Positions 14,397 to 54,123 of a stretch of 64,000 bases of DNA are shown here, piece after piece; positions within the stretch are counted from its first letter, which is position 1, and the number at the start of each line of letters is the position of its first letter. The stretch is from a bacterium (GTDB taxonomy: Bacteria > Patescibacteriota > Patescibacteriia > JAGPKW01): assembly GCA_021780535.1 (NCBI GenBank), contig JAJXYN010000011.1, positions 15,295 through 79,294 of the forward strand. The letters are read 5' to 3'. Below the pieces are notes generated by a model. It saw only the letters and a program-made list of their open reading frames with translations. It was not told where the DNA came from and did not search any database. Both the position numbers and the translations under genes were made by a program.

Positions 14397-14627
14397 ATGC
14401 ACATACAAGAAGATTGTCCAGTAAACCCGGAGTTTCGCGGGTCAGCAACATTAGGAGAAAGAGGTCAAATAGTTATTCCTTCTGAATTAAGAGCGGAACT
14501 TAATATAAATCCTGGGGATAAATTTATGTTTTTTAAGGTTTATAATAAAATTGTTTCTCTTATAAAAGCTGATGATATTGAAGAAATTCAAAATACTATG
14601 AAAAATTTATCTAAAATGACTAAATAA
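14397..14627 (+). CDS. AbrB/MazE/SpoVT-family small DNA-binding protein
   Basis: A swapped-hairpin-like segment ERGQIVIPSELRAELNINPGDK, 76 aa, directly upstream of the MATE gene. Confidence 0.5.
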   Translation: MHIQEDCPVNPEFRGSATLGERGQIVIPSELRAELNINPGDKFMFFKVYNKIVSLIKADDIEEIQNTMKNLSKMTK

Positions 14628-14631
14628 AATT

Positions 14632-16041
14632 ATGACGGAAATTAAAAATAAATCAATTACAAAATCCATATTAACAATTGCTGTGCCCATAGTTTTCGTT
14701 AATATTTTACAAGTTGCATATAGCTTGGTGGACACTTACTGGGTTGGAAAACTTGGTGCTAACGCCATTGCTTCTATATCTATTTCTTTCCCAATATTAT
14801 TTCTTATAATGGCTATCGCGAACGGTCTTACTGTTGCTGGGTCTGTTTTTGTTTCTCAATATAAAGGCAAAAATGATAAAGAAAATATAAGTAAATTTTC
14901 CGGACAAACGATGATAACTGTTACAGTATTGTCATTGATTTTATCTGTTGTAGGATTTTTTACATCTGTTCCATTATTAAAATTAATTGGTGCTGGCCCA
15001 GAAATTATTAATGACGCTGCTGGATATCTTCAAGTTTCTTGCCTTGGATTATCTTCTACTTTTATATTTTTTGTATTTCAATCAATAATGAGAGGTGTTG
15101 GAGAGGTTAAAAAAGCTACATATATCATGTTTCTTGGAGTTGTATTAAATTTTTTTATTGATCCTATTTTTATATTTGGAAATTTTGGAATTCATGCTAT
15201 GGGCGTTACTGGAAGTGCTGTTGCTACTATTATTTGTCAGATTGCTGGGTCTCTTATTGCTTTGTATTTTTTATTTTTTAATAAAAAAAATGAAATACAT
15301 ATTTCTGTTAAAAATTTAATCCCTGATTTTAAATTCATTAAACAAATATTCAAAATCGGATTACCATCATCAATGGAACAAATAATTAGATCCTCTGGAA
15401 TGATTTTAATGATGTTTTTGGTTACTGGATTTGGCACAATATTAACAGCTGCTTATGGACTTGGAACTAGAATGTTTAGTTTTGTAATCATACCAGCACT
15501 TGGTTTTATGATTGCTGTTTCCATTTTAGTTGGACAAAATATTGGCTCTGGCGACAAAAAAAGAGCGGAGGAGATTGCAAAAAAAGGCGCTATAATGGCT
15601 TTTTTAGCTTTAACTTTAATTAGTGTTATTTTCTTTGTTTTTGCAAAATTTATAATTCAGATGTTTATACAAGATGATTCAGCTGTTATAGATGTTAGTG
15701 TTAAATTTATGAGATTTTTATCTGTAACTTTTGGAATGATGGGAATATCCATGACTCTTATGGGTGCTTTTATGGGCTCTGGAAACACTGTAACTTCAAT
15801 GATTTTAACGACCTTCCAATTATTTATTAATTTTGTATTAGCATTAATATTATCTAAATTTACATCTCTTGGATATAATGGAATATTTTGGTCTTACCCA
15901 ATAGCAACATTTATAATGTTTATAATTGCTATAATTATATTTTTAAAAGGAGATTGGAAAAATAAAAAAATAACAGAAGAAATGAAAATAAAAGATACAG
16001 TAGAAGAAGAAACTCTTATTAGAGAATTTGCAGAAGAATAA
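14632..16041 (+). CDS. MATE family efflux transporter
   Basis: 12 TM helices with NorM/DinF-like repeats; 469 aa. Confidence 0.85.
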   Translation: MTEIKNKSITKSILTIAVPIVFVNILQVAYSLVDTYWVGKLGANAIASISISFPILFLIMAIANGLTVAGSVFVSQYKGKNDKENISKFSGQTMITVTVLSLILSVVGFFTSVPLLKLIGAGPEIINDAAGYLQVSCLGLSSTFIFFVFQSIMRGVGEVKKATYIMFLGVVLNFFIDPIFIFGNFGIHAMGVTGSAVATIICQIAGSLIALYFLFFNKKNEIHISVKNLIPDFKFIKQIFKIGLPSSMEQIIRSSGMILMMFLVTGFGTILTAAYGLGTRMFSFVIIPALGFMIAVSILVGQNIGSGDKKRAEEIAKKGAIMAFLALTLISVIFFVFAKFIIQMFIQDDSAVIDVSVKFMRFLSVTFGMMGISMTLMGAFMGSGNTVTSMILTTFQLFINFVLALILSKFTSLGYNGIFWSYPIATFIMFIIAIIIFLKGDWKNKKITEEMKIKDTVEEETLIREFAEE

Positions 16042-29927: not shown

Positions 29928-30953
29928 ATGTTTTTCTCAAATTTATTTAAACCACAAGGAATAGGAATAGATATAGGAACTGATAAAATAGTTGTTTATC
30001 TTGATAAAAAAGGAGTAGTTCTAAATGAACCTACTGTTATTTCTATTAATACAAAAAACAACCAAGTAATTGCTATAGGTCAAAAAGCAAAAGAAATGAT
30101 AGGAAGAGTTCCTAGCTATATTGATATTATAAAACCAATAGAAAATGGAGTTATATCAAACTTTGAAGCCACAGAGAAAATGATTGACTATTTTATGAAA
30201 AAAATCAGAAGAGATTATGGTAATTTTTTAAATTCTCAAGCATTAATTTCTATTCCACTTGATATTACTGAAGTTGAAAGAAAAGCTGTTAATGATGTAA
30301 TTCTTGCAACTGGTATTAAAAATATTTATACAATAGACAAATGTATAGCTACTGCCATAGGTAATAGATTGAAAATATTAGATTCCATAGGTAATTTTGT
30401 TGTAGAATTTGGTGCAGGAAGAACTGAAATAATCACAATATCTACTGGCGGTATAATGGCTTATAAATCTATACCTTTTGGAAGTAAGAGTATGGATCAA
30501 AATATTATTTCTTACATAAGAGATAAATTTAGTATATTAATAGGAGAAACTACTGCTGAAAATATAAAGAAAAATATTGGTACAGCCCTTGAAAATAAAG
30601 AAAAAAAAATAAAAGTTAAAGGCAGAGATCTTGCTACTGGAATGCCGAAAGAAGTTATTGTTACTAATATAGACATATCTAACGCTATTGATAAAAATAT
30701 AGAAACTATAGTTGCTAATATTGAGTTTGTACTTGAAGCAACACCACCTGAAATTTTAAATGATATATACGAAAAAGGCATTATTCTTTCTGGAGGCGGG
30801 TCTCTTATTGATGGTCTTAAAGAAAGAATATCTAAACAAACTAAAATTACTACTTATACCGCCGACGATCCTTCTATGAGTGTTATTAGGGGCATAGGAA
30901 TGATATTAGCAGACATGACAAAATATAAAGATATTTATACAAAAATGAACTAG
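29928..30953 (+). CDS. mreB: rod shape-determining actin-like protein MreB
   Basis: N-terminus GIDIGTDKIVVY, actin-fold phosphate and adenosine motifs, 341 aa. Confidence 0.9.
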   Translation: MFFSNLFKPQGIGIDIGTDKIVVYLDKKGVVLNEPTVISINTKNNQVIAIGQKAKEMIGRVPSYIDIIKPIENGVISNFEATEKMIDYFMKKIRRDYGNFLNSQALISIPLDITEVERKAVNDVILATGIKNIYTIDKCIATAIGNRLKILDSIGNFVVEFGAGRTEIITISTGGIMAYKSIPFGSKSMDQNIISYIRDKFSILIGETTAENIKKNIGTALENKEKKIKVKGRDLATGMPKEVIVTNIDISNAIDKNIETIVANIEFVLEATPPEILNDIYEKGIILSGGGSLIDGLKERISKQTKITTYTADDPSMSVIRGIGMILADMTKYKDIYTKMN

Positions 30954-30955
30954 AC

Positions 30956-31738
30956 ATGAAAAAAATTTTTTTAATTTTAGGTGTTATTATCCTTCTTACT
31001 TCTTTTGTGTTTTTGAAGTTTGATGTTTTTAGTTTTCCATCAAATTTTGTTAGAAGTATTTCTAATAACATTACTGCGAATTTAAATTCTATTTCTTCAT
31101 ATTCTAATGATAAAATAAGTATAATTTCTAATATTTCAAATATATTAAAAGAAAATGAGGCATTAAAAAATGAAAATGAAGATCTTATCTATAAAATTAA
31201 TTCTATTACTGAAAAAAATAAGGAAAATGAAATAGTAAATGAAAGTATGAATTTTGTTAAAAATTATAATTATAAATTTGCAAAAATACTAACTATAAAT
31301 AAAGAAATTGATAACACAATAACAATAAATATTGGCAAAAAAGATGGAATAGATGTCGGTTATCCTGTTATTTTTAAAAATGGTTTTTTAATTGGCAAAA
31401 TAAAACAAGTAAATGATAATTCTTCTGTGGTTTTATTAACAATAGATAAATCAAGCGAAGTTGCTGCTACGGTATCTGGGTATGATCATAGTATAGGCAT
31501 AATAAACGGAAATTATGGATTGAATTTTAAGCTTAATTATGTATCAATCAAAGAACCGATACGAAACGATGATGTTGTTGTTACAAGTGGTATAGAAAAT
31601 AATGTTCCTTCTGGATTAATAATAGGGAAAATCTCTAAAGTAGAATATAAACCATCAGATTTTTTTCAAGACGTGACGGTTTCACCAGTAATTCCTTTTG
31701 AAAACTTCAGAGTTGTTAGCGTAATAATGCCAAATTAA
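30956..31738 (+). CDS. mreC: rod shape-determining protein MreC
   Basis: N-terminal TM, coiled coil, and MreC beta-domains (GIDVGYPVIFKNGFLIGKIKQV). Confidence 0.75.
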   Translation: MKKIFLILGVIILLTSFVFLKFDVFSFPSNFVRSISNNITANLNSISSYSNDKISIISNISNILKENEALKNENEDLIYKINSITEKNKENEIVNESMNFVKNYNYKFAKILTINKEIDNTITINIGKKDGIDVGYPVIFKNGFLIGKIKQVNDNSSVVLLTIDKSSEVAATVSGYDHSIGIINGNYGLNFKLNYVSIKEPIRNDDVVVTSGIENNVPSGLIIGKISKVEYKPSDFFQDVTVSPVIPFENFRVVSVIMPN

Positions 31739-38576: not shown

Positions 38577-38634
38577 AATTTTATTGTGTAAAACTAGGCA
38601 AATAAATAATTTGACTGATACAATAAATTGACAA
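38577..38634 (+). repeat. partial copy (3' promoter part) of the accessory-cassette promoter repeat
   Basis: AATTTTATTGTGTAAAACTAGGCAAATAAATAATTTGACTGATACAAT. Confidence 0.5.
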
Positions 38635-38724
38635 AAATGAATACTATGATAAAATAATAATACTTACTATTGGTAGGGCATAGCTTAAGCGTTAGTACTT
38701 AATTCAGACCCCCAGATAAAAATA

Positions 38725-39228
38725 CTACGATTTTGTCGTAGTATTTTTGTTTTCTAAAAATTTACAATCATTTAAAAAAATTAAAAATTTATTAGGGGTA
38801 ACTGTTTTTAATAACATAGAAAGCTTTTTTCTATTTGGAATAATTAATTTATAAAATTTATTATTTGATATTAGATATTTAACAATGCAATCAAAATCAC
38901 CATCGCCAGTAACTACGATACATTTATTATAAATATTAAAATAAATCATAATATTTAAAATCATTAAAGAATCTACATTTCCTTTTATTTTACCATTATT
39001 ATTTATTAAAATATTTTTAAAAACTAAGATATAACCAATGTTTTTTAAATATTCATATAAATTTTTATTTTTCTCAATAAAGCCAATAAATAAAAACATT
39101 TTATTTGATTTATATTTTTCTTTAAGATAAATATAAAATCTTTGATAATCTAATTTCCAACCAAGTTCCAACACACCTAGATTTAAATTTTGATTATCTA
39201 TAAAAGTATAGATAATTTCTTTTTCCAT
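38725..39228 (-). CDS. NYN/LabA-like (PIN-like) domain protein
   Basis: The VVTGDGDFDCIVKYL motif is characteristic of the NYN domain. A bidirectional hairpin terminator lies at its 3' end. Confidence 0.6.
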   Translation of the reverse strand: MEKEIIYTFIDNQNLNLGVLELGWKLDYQRFYIYLKEKYKSNKMFLFIGFIEKNKNLYEYLKNIGYILVFKNILINNNGKIKGNVDSLMILNIMIYFNIYNKCIVVTGDGDFDCIVKYLISNNKFYKLIIPNRKKLSMLLKTVTPNKFLIFLNDCKFLENKNTTTKS

Positions 39229-39262
39229 GTTTTGTTTTAAAATTAAACTATTACAAACATAT

Positions 39263-39389
39263 CAAACACTAAAACATGCAACATTAATTTCTATATTAAT
39301 TCTTTATTAATATTCCTAAATTTTGTTTTATATTAAATATTAATTTTATTGTGCAAAACTAGACAAATAAATAATTTGGCTGATACAAT
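39263..39389 (+). repeat. accessory-cassette promoter repeat, copy A
   Basis: CAAACACTAAAACAT...ATTAATTCTTTATTAATATT...AATTTTATTGTGCAAAACTAGACAAATAAATAATTTGGCTGATACAAT. Shared with 43538-43680 and 44287-44406, and more distantly 53893-53965. Confidence 0.55.
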
Positions 39390-43119: not shown

Positions 43120-43476
43120 TTACTTAAGATTGTTGAATATCTTTGATAATATTAAATTTATTTCTCTTGCTTCTTTCCAGAATATTCTTAATTTTTCTTT
43201 ATTATCATCTTCATAATTAACTAGTATTTCTATCCAATATTCTGTTTCTTTCGCTTCTTTTCTTGATATTGCTATTTTGTTTCTAAAATCTTTTTTAGAA
43301 CAGCTATTATTAGCTTCTATATAGTTTGCACCAATAGAAGTTGAACATCTAAATAATTGATTTAATAAGGAATCTAAATCTTTATTAATATATTTATTTT
43401 CTTTTCTAATTTCTTTAATAAACAATATCAAATCTTTAATAAATAATTTAATTCTATCTTCAAGATCATATTTCAT
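43120..43476 (-). CDS. four-helix-bundle protein (23S rRNA IVS protein / Avd-like family)
   Basis: STSIGANYIEA...SKKDFRNKIAISRKEAKETEYWIEIL matches the TIGR02436-type four-helix-bundle family. Confidence 0.7.
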   Translation of the reverse strand: MKYDLEDRIKLFIKDLILFIKEIRKENKYINKDLDSLLNQLFRCSTSIGANYIEANNSCSKKDFRNKIAISRKEAKETEYWIEILVNYEDDNKEKLRIFWKEAREINLILSKIFNNLK

Positions 43477-43537
43477 AGTATTTGTTTTAAAATTTAAATT
43501 TTAATATTTAGATTTGTTTTGAATTTTGGTTTTTTTA

Positions 43538-43680
43538 GTTTTAAAATTTCTACTATACCAAACACTAAAACATACAACATTAATTTCCATATTAATTCTT
43601 TATTAATATTTTTAAATTTTGTTTTATATTAAATGTTAATTTTATTGTGCAAAACTAGATAAATAAATAATTTGACGAAT
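43538..43680 (+). repeat. accessory-cassette promoter repeat, copy B
   Basis: GTTTTAAAATTTCTACTATACCAAACACTAAAACATACAACATTAATTTCCATATTAATTCTTTATTAATATTTTTAAATTTTGTTTTATATTAAATGTTAATTTTATTGTGCAAAACTAGATAAATAAATAATTTGACG. Confidence 0.6.
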
Positions 43681-43699
43681 TTTTAGAATTTGATATAAT
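43672..43699 (+). promoter_or_regulatory. sigma70-like promoter TTGACG-16-TATAAT
   Basis: TTGACGAATTTTTAGAATTTGATATAAT. The same TAGAATTTGATATAA box recurs at 39415-39430. Confidence 0.45.
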
Positions 43700-43702
43700 A
43701 TT

Positions 43703-43868
43703 TAATATAAATTCCTTCGGGACTACAAAGATGTTTAACATCTTTGGGAAAAAGCTTTTATTGAATTATGTCCATAAAAGTTTACAACAATGGCTTCGGC
43801 CCTCCCTCTAGTTAATTCTAGTAGGGTAAAAATTGAAAAACTACGCAATTAATTTGCGTAGTTTTTCT
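43703..43868 (+). ncRNA. candidate small RNA (promoter-to-terminator unit) converging on the MazF-like gene
   Basis: Starts downstream of the 43672 promoter. Contains CCTTCGGG and the perfect hairpin CAAAGATG-TTTA-ACATCTTTG, and ends at terminator hairpin CTACGCAATTAATTTGCGTAG plus T-run. Confidence 0.25.
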
Positions 43869-44233
43869 TTTATTATTTTGAAATCTTCTATTTTTATATA
43901 TCCATTTAAATATTTTAATCTTTTACTATCTATTATTCTCAATTGTGATAACATTGCTGTACTTTCTATGTCTTTTATATAATTAAACTTATGATAGAAT
44001 TTATTTTCTTGTTTTTTTGATGAAGTTAATGGTATTCCAAAAAATAATCTATCATTAAATTTTTTTAATATTAAAACTGGTCTCAAAAATGATTTATTAT
44101 CACCATTTTGTTCAAAACCTATGTTTAACCCTAAAAAACAAAACCAAATTTCTCTTTCATGAAAAAATACATTATGTTCTTTTTTATTTAACTCTGATTT
44201 TTTATTGTGCCAATTTAAAATTTCTTTTTCCAT
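43841..44233 (-). CDS. MazF/PemK-family toxin-like protein (orphan)
   Basis: REIWFCFLGLNIGFEQNG...RPVLILKK...IPLTS...SQLRIIDSKRL parallels Kid/PemK (EIWLVSLDPTAGHEQQGTRPVLIV...VPVTS...RTID). Confidence 0.65.
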   Translation of the reverse strand: MEKEILNWHNKKSELNKKEHNVFFHEREIWFCFLGLNIGFEQNGDNKSFLRPVLILKKFNDRLFFGIPLTSSKKQENKFYHKFNYIKDIESTAMLSQLRIIDSKRLKYLNGYIKIEDFKIIKEKLRKLIA

Positions 44234-44286
44234 GTTTATTTAGTTTTAGTTTCTTTGTACTTCGAAGCTTTAGCGAAGAAGTATCA

Positions 44287-44406
44287 GTTTTAAAATTTCT
44301 ACTATACCAAACACTAAAACATACGACATTAATTTTTATATTAATTCTTTATTAATATTTTTAAATTTTGTTTTATTCTAGTTAATATCCAAATTGTGCA
44401 TAAAAG
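44287..44406 (+). repeat. accessory-cassette promoter repeat, copy C
   Basis: The 5' two-thirds are near-identical to copy B; the 3' part diverges. Confidence 0.55.
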
Positions 44407-44474
44407 ATAATTAACATTGATTTTATAATTAAATAAGGGTAGAATTTCTGTATTGATTTTTTTAAAGAATAAAA

Positions 44475-51891: not shown

Positions 51892-52010
51892 GCTTTTTTA
51901 TAAAATAGGGTAGAGATACTCTATTTTAGTTTAATTCTTTAGTTTTTTAGTTTTGAATTTTATTTTTATTTGACGTATTATTATTTTTTGATATAATTTA
52001 AATAATAACG
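51892..52010 (+). repeat. direct repeat DR1 (terminator-like hairpin plus TTGACG-16-TATAAT promoter)
   Basis: Near-identical to 52741-52859: CTTTTTTATAAAATAGGGTAGAGATACTCTATTTTAGTTTAATT...TTTATTTGACG(T/G)ATTATTATTTTTTGATATAATTTAAATAA. Confidence 0.65.
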
Positions 52011-52098
52011 AGACGCCCGGGACAAATTCCAGGGGAAAAGATATTTCGTAAGATTTATCTACTGGGCTGTCTGGCCACCTTTGATGGTGGCTTTTTTA
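52004..52098 (+). ncRNA. candidate roughly 95 nt small RNA, cis-antisense to the 3' end of the DUF3800 gene
   Basis: TTGACG (51970-51975) and TATAAT (51992-51997) with a 16 nt spacer. Then a GC-rich segment CGAGACGCCCGGGACAAATTCCAGGGG...CTGGGCTGTCTGG ending in terminator GGCCACC-TTTGA-TGGTGGC plus TTTTTT. Confidence 0.3.
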
Positions 52099-52654
52099 GT
52101 TCTATAACTTTATATTTTAATATTTTTTTTAATATAATATTTAAATCATTGTCTAATTTATTTTCATTATCAAAATAATATCTAAAAAAACCTGCGATAT
52201 AATCAGCAATTTTTATACCTATAGAATTATTATCTTTTATGGTTCTTATTTTACTTATAGATACATTTCTATCTCTAAAGTATTTTTTAATTTTTCTATC
52301 ATATTTTTTGGATTTTTTACCATCAATAAAAACATAATTATTCTTATCATTTTCAATAAAATCAATTAAAGAGCTTTCTAATTCTTTTTCTTGATTTATT
52401 GGGTTTATTAATATTTTTATTTTAAAATTTACTTTTTGATCTGCTATTTCTTGTAAAACTCTTTTCTTAACATTCCAATTATCCTCACTCCAATGAAATG
52501 ATTTGATTTTTAATATCTTTTCTAAATCAATAATTATCTTTTCTATAAAAACATAATTATCTTCATTTATAAACACAAAAGCAAAACACGAATACTTTAT
52601 ATCTTTATTTACACCAGATTCATCTATAAATATATAAGTTTTTTCTTTTTCCAT
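52055..52654 (-). CDS. DUF3800 domain protein
   Basis: N-terminal YIFIDESG and C-terminal IKIADYIAG motifs are typical of DUF3800. The last 13 codons read through the GC-rich + strand terminator hairpin. Confidence 0.6.
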   Translation of the reverse strand: MEKEKTYIFIDESGVNKDIKYSCFAFVFINEDNYVFIEKIIIDLEKILKIKSFHWSEDNWNVKKRVLQEIADQKVNFKIKILINPINQEKELESSLIDFIENDKNNYVFIDGKKSKKYDRKIKKYFRDRNVSISKIRTIKDNNSIGIKIADYIAGFFRYYFDNENKLDNDLNIILKKILKYKVIELKKPPSKVARQPSR

Positions 52655-52740
52655 TTTTTATAATTAATCATTAATCTATTTATTATAGACTACTTATTAA
52701 TAAATGGCTAATATTAGAATATTAATTAAGAATTAATTAA

Positions 52741-52859
52741 CTTTTTTATAAAATAGGGTAGAGATACTCTATTTTAGTTTAATTTTTTAGTTTTTTAGTT
52801 TTGAATTTTATTTTTATTTGACGGATTATTATTTTTTGATATAATTTAAATAACAATGC
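52741..52859 (+). repeat. direct repeat DR2 (copy of DR1)
   Basis: Its TTGACG-16-TATAAT promoter fires antisense into the 3' end of the second MazF-like gene and is followed by CCTTCGGG. Confidence 0.65.
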
Positions 52860-52936
52860 CTTCGGGCCCCGAGATTTCAATATTTATTTATTGATTTCGC
52901 ATATATAAAAGCAGTCAGAAATGGCTGATTTTATAT

Positions 52937-53323
52937 TTAAAACATTAACTCTCTTAGTCTTTCTTTTAATAGGGCAAAATCATCTTTTGATATATATCCT
53001 ATTTTTCTATCTATTCTTTTTGAATCTATTAATCTTATTTGAGAAAGAATTGCAAATGATTTTTTATTTAAAAATACAAATTCAAAATGATATTTATCTT
53101 TATTAACTTTACTCGTAAGTGGAATACAGACAAAAATTCTATTATTAAATTTTTTTAAAATTAAAACTGGCCTTTCAAATTCAAAACCACCACCATTTTG
53201 TTCAAAACCTATATTTTTACCTAGATTAACAAAACAAATTTCTCTTTCTTTATAGAACACTATTTTATCCTTATCTTCTATTTTCTTTTTTAGACTATTC
53301 CATTTATCAAATTCTTTTTCCAT
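52937..53323 (-). CDS. MazF/PemK-family toxin-like protein (orphan paralog)
   Basis: Paralog of 43841-44233 (EREICFVNLGKNIGFEQNG...RPVLILKK...IPLTS...SQIRLIDSKRI). Its 5' leader and first four codons are identical to those of the DUF3800 gene. Confidence 0.65.
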   Translation of the reverse strand: MEKEFDKWNSLKKKIEDKDKIVFYKEREICFVNLGKNIGFEQNGGGFEFERPVLILKKFNNRIFVCIPLTSKVNKDKYHFEFVFLNKKSFAILSQIRLIDSKRIDRKIGYISKDDFALLKERLRELMF

Positions 53324-53344
53324 TTTTTATAATTAATCATTAAT

Positions 53345-53842
53345 CTATTTATTATTTCTATCCCCATTCCACATTTTTGGATTATTGATAATATAACGTT
53401 TTATTTTTAAATATTCTATTTCGTTACGAATTATATGATCATGAAATGATTTTTGCCATTTGAAATAATATGGTTTTATTTTATTGATTTCACGGGATGC
53501 AGACGATTTAAATAAACCAATGATTAATGATAATAATTGATTATTACGTTCCCGTAGGTGCCAGATTAATCTGGCACCTACATCACAATTTTTATTTATT
53601 TCAAAAATAAAATGTAAATGATTCGGCATTATACAATATTCATGTATTATTATTGTTTTATGAAAATTTTCTATATTTAATATTTTATTTTTCACAATTA
53701 TACCAATATTGTTTAAAATCATTTTATCGTTTTCAATATTTCCAAAATATGGATATCTATCACCAGTGCATATTGTAATAAAATAAAATCCATTATTTGA
53801 ATAATTCCATTTATTCCATCTGTTATTCTTATTTTGATACAT
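53345..53842 (-). mobile_element. IS200-like Y1 (HUH) transposase of the REP-associated tyrosine transposase (RAYT) type
   Basis: HUH motif MPNHLHFIF, GLFKSSASREIN, and C-terminal FKWQKSFHDHIIRNEIEYLKIKRYIINNP (WQ..FHDH.IR.E...YI..NP, the RAYT signature). A 28 bp perfect palindrome sits inside the ORF at 53554-53581. Confidence 0.7.
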
Positions 53843-53892
53843 ATTTTATTTAAACATTTTTTAACCAAATAAATATATCAAAATACTAAATA

Positions 53893-53965
53893 TTCTATAT
53901 TAATATTTCTATTAATTTTAGATTAATATTTCTAAATTTTGTTTTATCTTAAGTATTAATTTTAT
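53893..53965 (+). repeat. accessory-cassette promoter repeat, diverged copy D
   Basis: TTCTATATTAATATTTCTATTAATTTTAGATTAATATTTCTAAATTTTGTTTTATCTTAAGTATTAATTTTATTGTGTAAAAAG. Confidence 0.4.
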
Positions 53966-54123
53966 TGTGTAAAAAGATTTATCTTTGTTAAAATTTCGAC
54001 TGATGAAGTATGACGGTAATATTCTATTTTATTTTTATTTGACGGATTATTATTTTTTGATGAAATTTTTTTATTTATATTACGTAATATATAATTATAC
54101 AACCTAATACCAATGGAGGGGTT

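Follow-up and report, generated by a model that had tools for sequence, protein, structure and literature searches.

The window analysed here, i.e. the whole stretch of 64 kb, contains two loci at which a gene coding for a MazF/PemK-like protein is faced, on the opposite strand, by a promoter, a predicted small RNA and an intrinsic terminator. Their features are the following:

43672–43699, plus strand: promoter of RNA 1, with TTGACG, a 16-nt spacer and a TG-extended TATAAT (TTGACG-16-TGaTATAAT; 11/12 consensus positions and an extended -10)
43704–43752, plus strand: RNA motif copy A, with leader AUAAAU, H1 UCC-UUCG-GGA and H2 at 43726–43747 (covariance model R2, 42.6 bits, E 4e-8; R1, 28.6 bits; fold)
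43706–43875, plus strand: predicted full transcript of RNA 1, ~170 nt, comprising copy A, a spacer hairpin, copy B and the terminator (ends inferred from promoter and terminator)
43783–43831, plus strand: RNA motif copy B, GGCUUCGGCC (R2, 30.3 bits, E 1e-4; alignment with homologous loci; fold)
43835–43867, both strands: intrinsic terminator of locus 1 (terminator scan), 14 pairs, common to RNA 1 and toxin 1, covering the toxin stop and the last ~9 codons
43841–44233, minus strand: toxin 1, a 130-aa MazF/PemK-like protein with an N-terminal extension carrying the conserved W8 and K12 (ORF list, Pfam, family alignment)
52818–52845, plus strand: promoter of RNA 3, with TTGACG, a 16-nt spacer and a TG-extended TATAAT
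52852–52935, plus strand: RNA 3, ~84 nt, with leader AACAAU, H1 GCC-UUCG-GGC at 52858–52867 and an AU-rich H2 at 52870–52899 (sequence, covariance model, fold)
52912–52927, plus strand: intrinsic terminator of locus 2, followed by a U tract (terminator scan)
52937–53323, minus strand: toxin 2, a 128-aa MazF/PemK-like protein, 21 nt downstream of a RAYT gene (ORF list, Pfam, AF2)

Both open reading frames had been described as PemK/MazF-like in an initial annotation of this DNA; they are found at the positions given there, and the assignment is borne out by Pfam and by the predicted fold. Toxins 1 and 2 match PF02452 (PemK_toxin) with 34.7 bits (E 2e-8) and 48.3 bits (E 1e-12), respectively, both above the curated Pfam cut-off of 23.1, and share 51% sequence identity in a pairwise alignment. 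The AF2 model of toxin 2 has the MazF fold, an SH3-like barrel (pLDDT 76), and its 50 best Foldseek matches in the PDB are all MazF, YdcE or MoxT with a probability of 1.00, led by S. aureus MazF and B. subtilis YdcE; no ToxN chain is among these 50. The profile of the toxin family also matches the solved chains of MazF, EndoA and PemK at E ~1e-5. In the family alignment, R51-P52 is invariant and a P-L-T/S motif nearly so, and these align with the ‘RPVLV’ and ‘IT’ positions of EndoA. We take R51 and the Thr/Ser to be the catalytic positions (R29 in E. coli, R25 in B. subtilis). The subfamily is marked by an extra N-terminal helix of ~24 residues with an invariant Trp and Lys, which the solved MazF proteins do not have; it is modelled with moderate confidence only (pLDDT about 60–65), and could be an intramolecular regulator of the toxin. 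When its proteins are grouped at 50% identity, the subfamily gives ~2,000 clusters; it is spread over the Patescibacteria (candidate-phyla-radiation) and the sulfur-oxidising and pathogenic Campylobacterota, including virulence plasmids and prophages of C. jejuni. A tblastn search of GenBank phages returned relatives of the toxin in C. jejuni prophages of the CJIE4 type. In IMG/VR, the exact RNA patterns gave chance matches only and a scan with protein patterns gave no relatives, and the PADLOC library of defence systems has no match for the toxin loci.

MazF, which owes its definition to the protein antidote MazE, serves as the standard example of a type II toxin; the NCBI label of the subfamily is ‘type II toxin-antitoxin system PemK/MazF family toxin’. 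The two toxins had nevertheless been described as solitary, which agrees with what is found: there is no antitoxin ORF in the flanks of either, toxin 1 being preceded by a 240-nt spacer that bears repeats and toxin 2 by the RAYT gene. When 154 homologous toxin loci were compared by ORF clustering, no family of upstream ORFs recurred (the biggest cluster has 3 members), and the 51 ORFs upstream of homologous toxins yielded no Pfam match to MazE, RHH or Phd. A recurrent protein antitoxin upstream of the toxin is rejected on these two analyses. A MazE-like gene elsewhere had been named as an argument against solitary toxins, and a window-wide search did return a single ORF with an AbrB/MazE domain, at 14397–14627; it is, however, coupled to a MATE transporter gene, 4 nt upstream of which it lies, at 29 kb from toxin 1, and has no counterpart at the 154 toxin loci. 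A protein antitoxin encoded in trans, e.g. by this ORF, is retained as a caveat.

Beyond each toxin 3' end, the initial annotation had placed a plus-strand promoter and a tetraloop hairpin. The promoter of locus 1 lies where it was described, and its position relative to the leader agrees with the family pattern, whereas the second copy lies at 52818–52845 and not at 52826–52853, a difference of 8 nt. The sequence CCTTCGGG is indeed present beyond both toxin genes, at 43714 and 52859, these being its only 2 occurrences in 64 kb (chance expectation 0.05), but the one at locus 1 belongs to an additional upstream copy of the motif, and the copy in the family position had been overlooked. Locus 1 contains two tandem, unlike copies, of which copy B, and not the one with CCTTCGGG, is as far from the toxin stop as is typical of the family. 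Copy B is made up of the leader ACAACAAU, H1 (GGC-UUCG-GCC, 43792–43801) and H2 (43803–43826). Copy A is probably an orphan from a lost cassette which now forms the 5' end of the transcript. RNA 1 folds with a minimum free energy of -53.8 kcal/mol (z = -8.0 against shuffles), and the fold of RNA 3 has a z of -4.25 by the same comparison; the match of RNA 3 to R2 (52849–52910) is marginal, with 19.9 bits and E ~0.1, and falls exactly at the expected site.

An antisense or convergent transcript across the toxin 3' end had also been proposed; the predicted RNA ends do not indicate a long antisense over the coding end. Each RNA is predicted to stop at an intrinsic terminator by the toxin stop (RNA 3 ends 2 nt short of the stop codon of toxin 2), so the overlap with the toxin transcript is restricted to the terminator. 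Complementarity between the RNA and the toxin mRNA is certain solely over the common terminator, beyond which only read-through of the toxin mRNA would extend it; the terminator arrangement of locus 1 recurs in homologous loci. The 61-aa antisense ORF noted earlier within toxin 2 (52921–53106) exists, but appears by chance and is ruled out as a gene by its lack of any Pfam match and of conservation, an antisense ATG-ORF of at least 60 aa being present in just 1 of 65 toxin homologues. Scans of the window and 20 canonical loci with Rfam 15, both at the gathering threshold and at E ≤ 10, gave nothing at the toxin-associated RNA and returned only DUF3800-II and tRNAs, which excludes a known Rfam family. 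A search with TRF for tandem repeats like those of ToxI gave AT-rich low-complexity repeats only.

For the comparison across loci, the RNA motif was defined as a 6-nt A-rich leader, a 3-bp cUUCGg hairpin, a 2–3-nt linker, a second hairpin and an A-rich tail, and the covariance models R1 and R2 were built only from sequences at referenced coordinates. Among 80 homologous loci collected through the protein, from Patescibacteria and Campylobacterota, the models matched 57 at first and 64 afterwards, i.e. the RNA is present, immediately beyond the toxin stop and in opposite orientation to the toxin, at no fewer than 64 of them. Most of the unmatched loci show a variant RNA by eye, and one locus (L053) has a second match upstream of its toxin. 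The order within the family is promoter, 5'-ACAAAU leader, cUUCGg hairpin, second hairpin, A-rich tail and terminator, with a -10 box at 56 of 59 loci and, in most, a gap of 6 nt between this box and the first A of the leader. Pairing is kept in 99.4% of the cells of the alignment and 9 of the 10 pairs covary, none of 500 shuffles being as extreme; the stable tetraloops UUCG and GNRA (30/54) are found only on the strand opposite the toxin. A search begun from the RNA, with 17-mers, gave 105 cases, 79 of which have a convergent toxin gene; in most of these loci the toxin stop lies 39–59 nt from the RNA 5' end. The leader and the UUCG hairpin are kept between phyla, while H2 and the flanks vary, the stem of H2 differing in length between loci to the point that MAFFT was unable to align it. 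No part of the conserved 5' domain falls within the toxin gene; it is the terminator that sits at the stop codon. Considering that the toxins are only ~45–55% identical, the conservation of leader and H1 outside the toxin gene indicates that antisense pairing alone is an insufficient explanation.

Within the 64 kb, the three matches to the motif are all at toxin genes, and across the 428 kb searched a single orphan lies away from them. The motif is not a REP element of the neighbouring RAYT gene, which is excluded by this restriction to toxin genes and by the unrelated neighbours of toxin loci elsewhere. A site of the integron attC type can be dismissed by reasoning, since such a site is one long imperfect palindrome, and the motif has a promoter of its own and two tetraloop hairpins that are independent of each other. 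Of the remaining cases returned by the RNA-first search, about 9 hold an intact RNA, with its promoter and structure, beside a deleted or truncated toxin, and toxins without the RNA are almost absent, an asymmetry as expected of an antitoxin. Taken together, the sequence comparisons strongly support an RNA that is conserved, covarying and almost obligately linked to this toxin subfamily.

One relative of the toxins is encoded by pVir0047 (CJJ81176_pVir0047) of C. jejuni, which scores 98.9 bits against the toxin-family HMM, carries the N-terminal motif FDEWNxxKK and is ~40% identical to the toxins of the window (41% by tblastn). It is the sole toxin-like gene annotated on pVir, has no adjoining gene for a protein antitoxin, and faces a convergent TG-extended promoter followed by a three-hairpin sRNA of 77 nt that ends at the toxin stop. 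The CjrA/CjpT system reportedly stabilises pVir. In papers citing that system, CjrA is an RNA antitoxin reported with the protein toxin CjpT on pVir of C. jejuni 81-176, and is assigned to type I as an antisense RNA (PMC10470494, PMC7826846). Probably, cjpT is pVir0047 and cjrA is CJpv3, the 77-nt sRNA at 31119–31043 which is visible on Northern blots (Dugar 2013, PMC3656092, Tables S5 and S12). The same study places a dRNA-seq start site at 31119 on the minus strand, exactly at the predicted promoter, with a signal of 16164 for CJpv3 against 28 for the toxin, i.e. ~580-fold (PMC3656092). The 3' end of CJpv3 lies 5 nt beyond the toxin stop, and the ORF is not entered. Model R2 has no significant match at the pVir sRNA, in which the ACAAAU leader and the cUUCGg hairpin are absent and only the last hairpin resembles the RNA of H. 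suis. More generally, no ACAAAU/UUCG signature was found in the RNAs of the Campylobacter and Helicobacter relatives, so that the conserved sequence is not universal in the toxin subfamily. The RNAs of the window are predicted from promoter, fold and terminator to be convergent sRNAs ending at the toxin stop, the sRNA that has been measured being the pVir homologue.

The same architecture is seen at a neighbouring gene of the window, close to locus 2:

51970–52092, plus strand: DUF3800-II module, with the same type of promoter, an RNA and a terminator, convergent with the DUF3800 gene and overlapping its 3' end (promoter and terminator scan)
51970–51997, plus strand: promoter of the DUF3800-II RNA, the third of identical type
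52005–52076, plus strand: DUF3800-II RNA (Rfam RF02961; score 64.5 bits, gathering score 43.2)
52073–52092, plus strand: terminator of the DUF3800-II RNA (terminator scan)
52055–52654, minus strand: DUF3800 (RNase H-like) gene (Pfam PF12686, E 1.6e-8)

Two repeats connect this module with locus 2. D18 (52643–52686 and 53312–53355) is 44 nt long, 100% identical, and covers the first codons and 5' leader of both the DUF3800 gene and toxin 2, and D5 (51893–52008 against 52741–52856; 116 nt, 97% identical) covers the promoters of the DUF3800-II RNA and of RNA 3. With an NYN gene included, three unrelated nuclease families of the window (MazF-like, DUF3800 and NYN) have the same convergent-sRNA layout. 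The DUF3800 RNA motifs have been described on either side and either strand of their gene, and were not assigned a function by their discoverers (Weinberg 2017, PMC5737381).

The reading that we favour, and regard as probable, is that each locus is a two-gene module in which an endoribonuclease of the MazF/PemK fold is paired with a convergent sRNA antitoxin that takes the place of a MazE-type protein. The earlier suggestion that the partner of the toxin is a convergent RNA and not a MazE-type protein is strongly supported by the comparative data, with the difference that the conserved part of this RNA lies outside the overlap with the toxin and is not a long antisense. That the RNA neutralises the toxin we infer in part from the probable link with CjrA/CjpT. 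According to the proposed mechanism, the near-consensus sigma-70 promoter would start the RNA at the first A of the 6-nt single-stranded ACAAAU leader, which would be followed by the 3-bp cUUCGg hairpin, the linker of 2–3 nt and a second hairpin, variable in sequence and usually capped by a GNRA loop. The A-rich tail would then lead into the intrinsic terminator, which in most loci would also end the toxin mRNA, and which is predicted to lie just before the stop in locus 2 and, in locus 1 and most homologues, to cover the final codons of the toxin together with its stop. The abundant RNA would hold the RNase inactive, and a halt in its synthesis or its decay (upon gene loss, phage attack or stress) would free the toxin. 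The most likely mode, which we put forward tentatively and on the strength of a conserved RNA domain situated beyond the toxin overlap, is a direct, type III-like binding of this 5' domain to the MazF-like dimer, possibly with the leader as a pseudo-substrate. Antisense pairing across the common terminator, in the manner of type I systems, is a less likely mode, either extra or alternative; a cis-antisense role, or one coupled to transcription, would agree with a convergent orientation that is strictly conserved. More doubtful than direct binding itself is the wider proposal that this MazF subfamily is a large class neutralised through direct binding of a single-copy structured RNA whose 5'-triphosphate ACA leader is an uncleavable pseudo-substrate, and that the module of promoter, sRNA and common terminator is general to at least three unrelated nuclease folds, the MazF-like, DUF3800/RNase H-like and NYN ones.

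In a purely type I-like system, the sRNA would be a cis-antisense only, pairing with the toxin mRNA at its 3' end (the terminator, or a read-through 3' UTR over H2 and H1). Cleavage of the RNase III type, or the loss of the stop codon, would keep the toxin from being made, and the hairpins would serve stability and fast loop-loop recognition. This would account for the convergent layout with a common terminator at every toxin, for the resemblance to TxpA/RatA and BsrG/SR4 of B. subtilis and for the amount of the pVir sRNA, which far exceeds that of the toxin mRNA, and papers citing CjrA classify it in this way. We nonetheless consider it unlikely, as the overlap is restricted to the terminator and CJpv3 stops 5 nt beyond the toxin stop, outside the ORF. 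Moreover, antisense pairing needs no conservation of primary sequence, yet the leader and the UUCG hairpin are kept across phyla; the toxin is a 130-aa soluble RNase and not a small membrane peptide, and orphan RNAs keep their promoter and structure after the toxin is lost.

The RNA might also be a functional partner of the nuclease without being its antitoxin, whether as substrate, as cofactor or specificity subunit, or as processed product, within an RNP for defence sensing or RNA processing; the RNAs associated with DUF3800 and NYN genes could be likewise. The single-stranded, ACA-containing leader does resemble the recognition sites of MazF, whose specificity is ACA or UACAU, and such a role would be in line with the layout shared by three unrelated nuclease families in the window and with DUF3800-associated RNAs lying on either side and strand (Weinberg 2017, PMC5737381). 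The retention of the RNA after toxin loss, with the reverse almost absent, is however better explained by an antidote than by a substrate, and the surplus of sRNA relative to toxin transcript on pVir fits an antidote too, as does the plasmid-stabilising RNA antitoxin reported for pVir, which makes this explanation improbable. It is more improbable still that the RNA has no role in toxin control, its hairpins being terminators, or REP-like or recombination-site hitch-hikers of a mobile toxin cassette, and the toxin being controlled by a distant protein or by its own N-terminal extension. The RAYT gene adjoining toxin 2 and the AbrB/MazE-domain ORF at 14397–14627 could be read in this sense, together with the case of M. 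xanthus, where MazF is controlled by an unlinked protein. But other loci need no RAYT gene, and the AbrB ORF is coupled to the MATE gene. Hitch-hiking hairpins are also difficult to reconcile with a dedicated strong promoter at a fixed distance from the leader, with covariation backing a folded RNA, with a strand-specific tetraloop bias, with a motif confined to toxin genes (three in 64 kb, and one orphan elsewhere in 428 kb) and with a homologous RNA seen on Northern blots (PMC3656092).

The favoured reading, a convergent RNA antitoxin, implies that a whole branch of the MazF family appears to use an RNA partner instead of MazE. The recurrence of the toxin–RNA pairing in hundreds of genomes points to a large, unannotated class of RNA-controlled toxins; no family-wide description, Rfam 15 model or annotation of the toxin-associated RNA was found. 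If this is true, the type II annotation of the subfamily is wrong, tools that find toxin–antitoxin systems as gene pairs would miss the RNA partner, and the border between systems of types I, II and III is blurred. If the module is general to the three nuclease folds, the long-unexplained DUF3800 RNA motifs would gain a function as antidotes to nucleases. Several orphan RNA motifs linked to nucleases may have a general role, to judge by the parallel modules at DUF3800 and NYN genes. Among the cultured carriers are C. jejuni 81-176, Nitratiruptor and H. suis; the shortness of the RNA would allow binding and inhibition to be studied in vitro.

Compared with the type II systems MazEF, PemIK and Kis-Kid, the toxins of the window have the same fold and the catalytic Arg and Thr/Ser, the nearest structures being B. 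subtilis EndoA/YdcE and S. aureus MazF, but there is no adjacent MazE, PemI or Kis gene and the N-terminal helix of ~24 residues is extra. In the B. subtilis type I systems TxpA/RatA and BsrG/SR4, convergent RNAs overlap the toxin 3' ends. The arrangement in the window is similar, with convergent toxin and RNA genes whose 3' ends meet and a strong, constitutive type of RNA promoter; it differs in that the toxin is a soluble MazF-fold RNase of 128–130 aa and not a small hydrophobic peptide (usually under 60 aa), and in that the overlap is only the common terminator, with the conserved RNA domain outside it. Type III comprises ToxIN, CptIN and TenpIN, for which truncated toxins beside intact RNA partners are known (Blower et al. 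2012, PMC3401426). As in those systems, an endoribonuclease of the Kid/MazF-like superfamily lies beside a non-coding RNA gene that has a separate promoter and terminator, a protein antitoxin is lacking, and an excess of RNA is expected. The toxin here is, however, a true PemK/MazF member with only PemK_toxin matches in Pfam, and not ToxN/AbiQ, CptN or TenpN; the RNA is a two-hairpin unit in place of a tandem array of ~36-nt repeats, and it is downstream and convergent, while that of type III is upstream and co-directional. The DUF3800 RNA motifs (PMC5737381) are, like the toxin-associated RNA, structured sRNAs that accompany a single nuclease family, have a promoter and a terminator of their own and, in the window, show the same layout; the DUF3800 family is RNase H-like, and the RNA structures are unrelated. 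The pVir system CjrA/CjpT, if cjpT is pVir0047 as seems probable, has a toxin of the same MazF-like subfamily, likewise faced by a convergent sRNA and lacking an adjoining protein antitoxin. The window RNAs differ from the pVir RNA in carrying the ACAAAU leader and cUUCGg hairpin, and while CjrA is classed as type I by the papers citing it, the conserved, non-overlapping RNA domain described here suggests recognition by the protein.

Both minus-strand ORFs that the initial annotation had taken for MazF/PemK-like toxins (toxin 1 and toxin 2) are present in the window, and both score above the Pfam PemK_toxin cut-off. The two proteins share 51% sequence identity, and their PemK/MazF affiliation is borne out by an AlphaFold2 model (pLDDT 76), which contains a MazF barrel with an additional N-terminal helix (residues 2-17), and by a Foldseek search against the PDB, where the best 50 matches are all MazF-type toxins. 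Against solved MazF, EndoA and PemK chains, the family profile does no better than E ~1e-5, in matches that begin at residue ~24. Invariant across 24 aligned relatives are W8, K12, R51-P52 and the G-x-N-x-G-x-E-Q-x-G loop, and a P-L-T/S motif is nearly so; R51-P52 aligns with EndoA's catalytic Arg. Both promoters claimed to face these genes also exist, the second at 52818-52845, 8 nt away from the position originally given.

Features of the window
14397-14627: SpoVT/AbrB-domain ORF (Pfam MazE_antitoxin), 76 aa, E 2.4e-7
38725-39228, minus strand: NYN-domain RNase ORF, the fourth nuclease gene in the window
43672-43699, plus strand: near-perfect promoter TTGACG-16-TGaTATAAT, facing toxin 1
43704-43752, plus strand: motif copy A, covariance model 42.6 bits
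43783-43831, plus strand: motif copy B, covariance model 30.3 bits
43835-43867, bidirectional: terminator covering the stop and last codons of toxin 1
43841-44233, minus strand: toxin 1, 130 aa, Pfam PemK_toxin 34.7 bits (cut-off 23.1)
51970-51997, plus strand: near-perfect promoter TTGACG-16-TGaTATAAT of the DUF3800-II unit
51970-52654: DUF3800-II RNA module (RNA and gene), RNA convergent with the DUF3800 gene, Rfam RF02961, 64.5 bits
52073-52092: terminator within the 3' end of the DUF3800 gene
52818-52845, plus strand: near-perfect promoter TTGACG-16-TGaTATAAT, facing toxin 2
52849-52910, plus strand: motif facing toxin 2, covariance model 19.9 bits, E ~0.1
52912-52927: terminator, 2 nt from the toxin 2 stop codon
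52937-53323, minus strand: toxin 2, 128 aa, Pfam PemK_toxin 48.3 bits (cut-off 23.1)
53345-53842: RAYT-like gene (REP-associated tyrosine transposase), co-oriented with toxin 2 and 21 nt upstream of it, NCBIfam 65.5 bits (below the cut-off of 80), Pfam Y1_Tnp 26.5 bits

These toxins form a MazF-fold subfamily without a linked protein antitoxin. In the window, no small ORF lies directly upstream of either gene: a 240-nt spacer with a copy of a dispersed repeat lies ahead of toxin 1, and the RAYT-like gene, around which no REP-like repeat family was seen, ahead of toxin 2. Same-strand upstream ORFs at 154 toxin loci form no recurrent family (the largest has at most three members), and a Pfam scan of the 51 best-placed ones returned a single HTH and no MazE/AbrB, RHH or Phd match, in agreement with the earlier claim that an upstream antitoxin ORF is lacking. 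No ToxI-like tandem repeats were found, PADLOC gave no match, and neither did Rfam for the toxin-facing RNAs of the window and of canonical loci. A scan of all intergenic small ORFs of the window yielded one AbrB/MazE_antitoxin-domain ORF (14397-14627), 29 kb from toxin 1. This ORF ends 4 nt before a MATE-type transporter gene (14632-16041, 469 aa), of which it is probably the transcription regulator; as a caveat, we keep it as a formal candidate for a trans-acting antitoxin.

The dispersed repeat is AT-rich, about 171 nt long, and its copies (39208-39378, 43504-43674, 44253-44423 and 53824-53994) show 62-82% identity. Three of them immediately precede the NYN gene, toxin 1 and the RAYT-toxin 2 pair, and the fourth precedes the promoter of RNA 1 (the plus-strand RNA facing toxin 1), which places one copy on either side of the toxin 1 cassette. 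The repeat may be a common bidirectional promoter region or an insertion hotspot. Just past the one at the RNA 1 promoter, on the toxin 1 strand, lies a 118-aa four-helix-bundle member of TIGR02436, '23S rRNA intervening sequence protein' (43120-43476, E 4e-19).

Each of the three plus-strand promoters is followed by a structured stretch and then by an intrinsic terminator, and CCTTCGGG occurs twice in the whole window, against 0.05 occurrences expected. The predicted RNAs at 43706-43876 and 52852-52938 fold far better than shuffled sequences (z = -8.0 and z = -4.25, respectively). The covariance model described below matches three times in the 64 kb, with no further hits, and the two matches facing toxin 1 mean that locus 1 contains two unlike tandem copies. 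Copy B stands at the family-typical distance from toxin 1 and lacks a convincing promoter; copy A follows the strong promoter, has a weak hairpin downstream, and looks like what remains of an older cassette after loss of the toxin.

The toxin subfamily comprises 478 protein matches in a 90%-clustered database, 1,951 clusters at 50% identity (E <= 1e-10) and at least 596 loci in species-representative genomes, mostly of Patescibacteria and Campylobacterota (Sulfuricurvum, Sulfurovum and Sulfurimonas among the latter). By eye, nearly every locus has a common element just past the toxin stop, in reverse complement, which consists of a TTGAC-17-TATAAT/TATACT promoter, (u)ACAAAU, a 3-bp cUUCGg hairpin, a linker of 2-3 nt, a second hairpin of variable sequence and an A-rich tail. 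A covariance model, built from seven loci in the first round, matched 57 of 80 loci and, in the second round, 64 of 80, at each toxin on the opposite strand and immediately 3' of the gene. Most loci without a match have variant versions of the motif recognisable by eye, and one homologous locus (L053) has an additional orphan-like match upstream of its toxin (local positions 1058-1103). Pairing of the first hairpin is kept in 99.4% of cells, and 42 changes (GGC/GCC, UCC/GGA, GCC/GGC and others) are double-sided. In the model-based alignment, which is fitted to the model and thus biased toward the structure, the ten pairs are 99.4% paired and nine of them covary; neither shuffles nor slid registers came near these values.

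The RNA element is almost obligately linked to the toxin, covarying and strand-specific, with a strong promoter of its own and a terminator common to both genes. UUCG and GNRA loops are confined to the strand opposite the toxin, the latter capping the second hairpin in 30 of 54 loci. A -10 box is found in 56 of 59 loci and, because it mostly lies 6 nt from the first A of the leader, transcription should start at this A. In most loci, the toxin stop and last 5-6 codons combine with the A and T tracts on either side into a bidirectional intrinsic terminator, and the start and terminator positions therefore give an sRNA of about 80-90 nt. The initial annotation had envisaged a convergent transcript across the toxin 3' end; its convergent promoter stands, and the overlap shrinks to the common terminator, the only stretch in which, barring read-through of the toxin mRNA, the predicted sRNA and the toxin transcript would be complementary.

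In several Patescibacteria loci, the cassette has tRNA genes at a distance of no more than a few hundred bases (L008 3002-3072, L022 3138-3966, L056 2281-2352 and others, in local coordinates), which may hint at preferred insertion sites. Three Campylobacterota loci (L019 865-2304, L020 2501-3940 and L033 1117-2478) have a toxin ORF without a stop codon, whose frame stays open across the sRNA gene and on into the gene beyond (sugar epimerase or reductase), with the sRNA motif retained on the opposite strand; a non-stop design, a fusion or decay could account for this.

Searching metagenome contigs with the exact 17-mer of the commonest RNA class gave 105 matches with enough flanking DNA, and 79 of these have a convergent toxin gene, its stop mostly 39-59 nt from the RNA start. 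Among the remaining 26 matches, about 16 are chance occurrences within GC-rich coding DNA, and about 9 consist of a complete RNA, which has its promoter, both hairpins and its terminator, beside a deleted or internally truncated toxin gene. The orphan sRNA loci are L094, L102, L143, L148, L152, L154, L159, L165 and L180, the last of which retains only the N- and C-terminal ends of the toxin. Toxin genes without the RNA are almost absent. That the RNA outlasts the toxin, and hardly ever the reverse, is as expected if losing the RNA first is lethal.

Among cultured bacteria, plasmids carry tblastn relatives in Nitratiruptor, Helicobacter suis and C. jejuni 81-176 (pVir), as do CJIE4-type prophages of C. 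jejuni. All four have strong family-HMM scores, the N-terminal W...K motif, and a convergent promoter with a hairpin-rich stretch at the toxin 3' end. Of their RNAs, that of Nitratiruptor can be recognised as a variant of the motif; those of Campylobacter and Helicobacter are diverged and give no covariance-model match. In C. jejuni, the homologous sRNA is expressed in large excess: Dugar et al. 2013 (PMC3656092, supplementary tables) give a pVir transcription start at 31119 (minus strand) with a signal of 16164, a start for the toxin homologue pVir0047 at 30608 with a signal of 28, and the Northern-detected sRNA CJpv3 (31119-31043, 77 nt) between pVir0047 and pVir0048. The sequence upstream of 31119 is exactly the promoter predicted here and, as the pVir0047 ORF ends at 31038, CJpv3 ends 5 nt short of it. 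According to two citing papers (PMC10470494, PMC7826846), Shen et al. 2016 showed that, in strain 81-176, CjrA is an RNA antitoxin belonging to a pVir-borne type I system. Since pVir0047 is the sole toxin-like gene annotated on pVir, CjpT is probably pVir0047 and CjrA is probably CJpv3.

The RNA is reasonably likely to be the antitoxin of this toxin subfamily. Direct binding of the RNA to the toxin protein would be somewhat more likely than a purely antisense action on the toxin mRNA, and the two modes are not mutually exclusive. The invariant convergent orientation and the published type I label of CjrA speak for antisense; protein recognition is favoured because the leader and UUCG hairpin are kept across phyla while the neighbouring sequence drifts, because this conserved domain lies outside the toxin gene, and because orphan RNAs stay intact.

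Similar nuclease-RNA modules are found in the same window. The DUF3800-II RNA overlaps the 3' end of the DUF3800 (RNase H-like) gene in a layout like that of the MazF modules. Over 116 nt, the promoter regions of the DUF3800-II RNA and of the toxin 2-facing RNA share 97% identity, and the DUF3800 and toxin 2 genes have 44 nt of 5' leader and first codons identical. The NYN gene faces a promoter, a structured stretch of ~95 nt and a bidirectional terminator (38719-38750) over its stop (region 38600-39228). A convergent TTGAC promoter is present at four of five NYN homologue loci (L354-L357 included), three of which have a common RNA core around CCGAAGG-UUUCGUCC; Rfam gave no match for the NYN-facing RNA.

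In the literature searched, we found no account of the RNA motif conserved across the family or of its covariation-supported structure, of its spread through candidate-phyla-radiation genomes, of the shared-terminator design and decay asymmetry, or of the parallel with the DUF3800 and NYN modules. The window module differs from type II systems by the absence of a protein antitoxin, from type III systems (Blower 2012, PMC3401426) by its other toxin family, the lack of a repeat array and the convergent RNA, and from type I systems in having a toxin other than a small hydrophobic peptide and only a minimal overlap. We do not rate it as a categorically new system, and its nearest relative is probably CjrA/CjpT, the single studied case.
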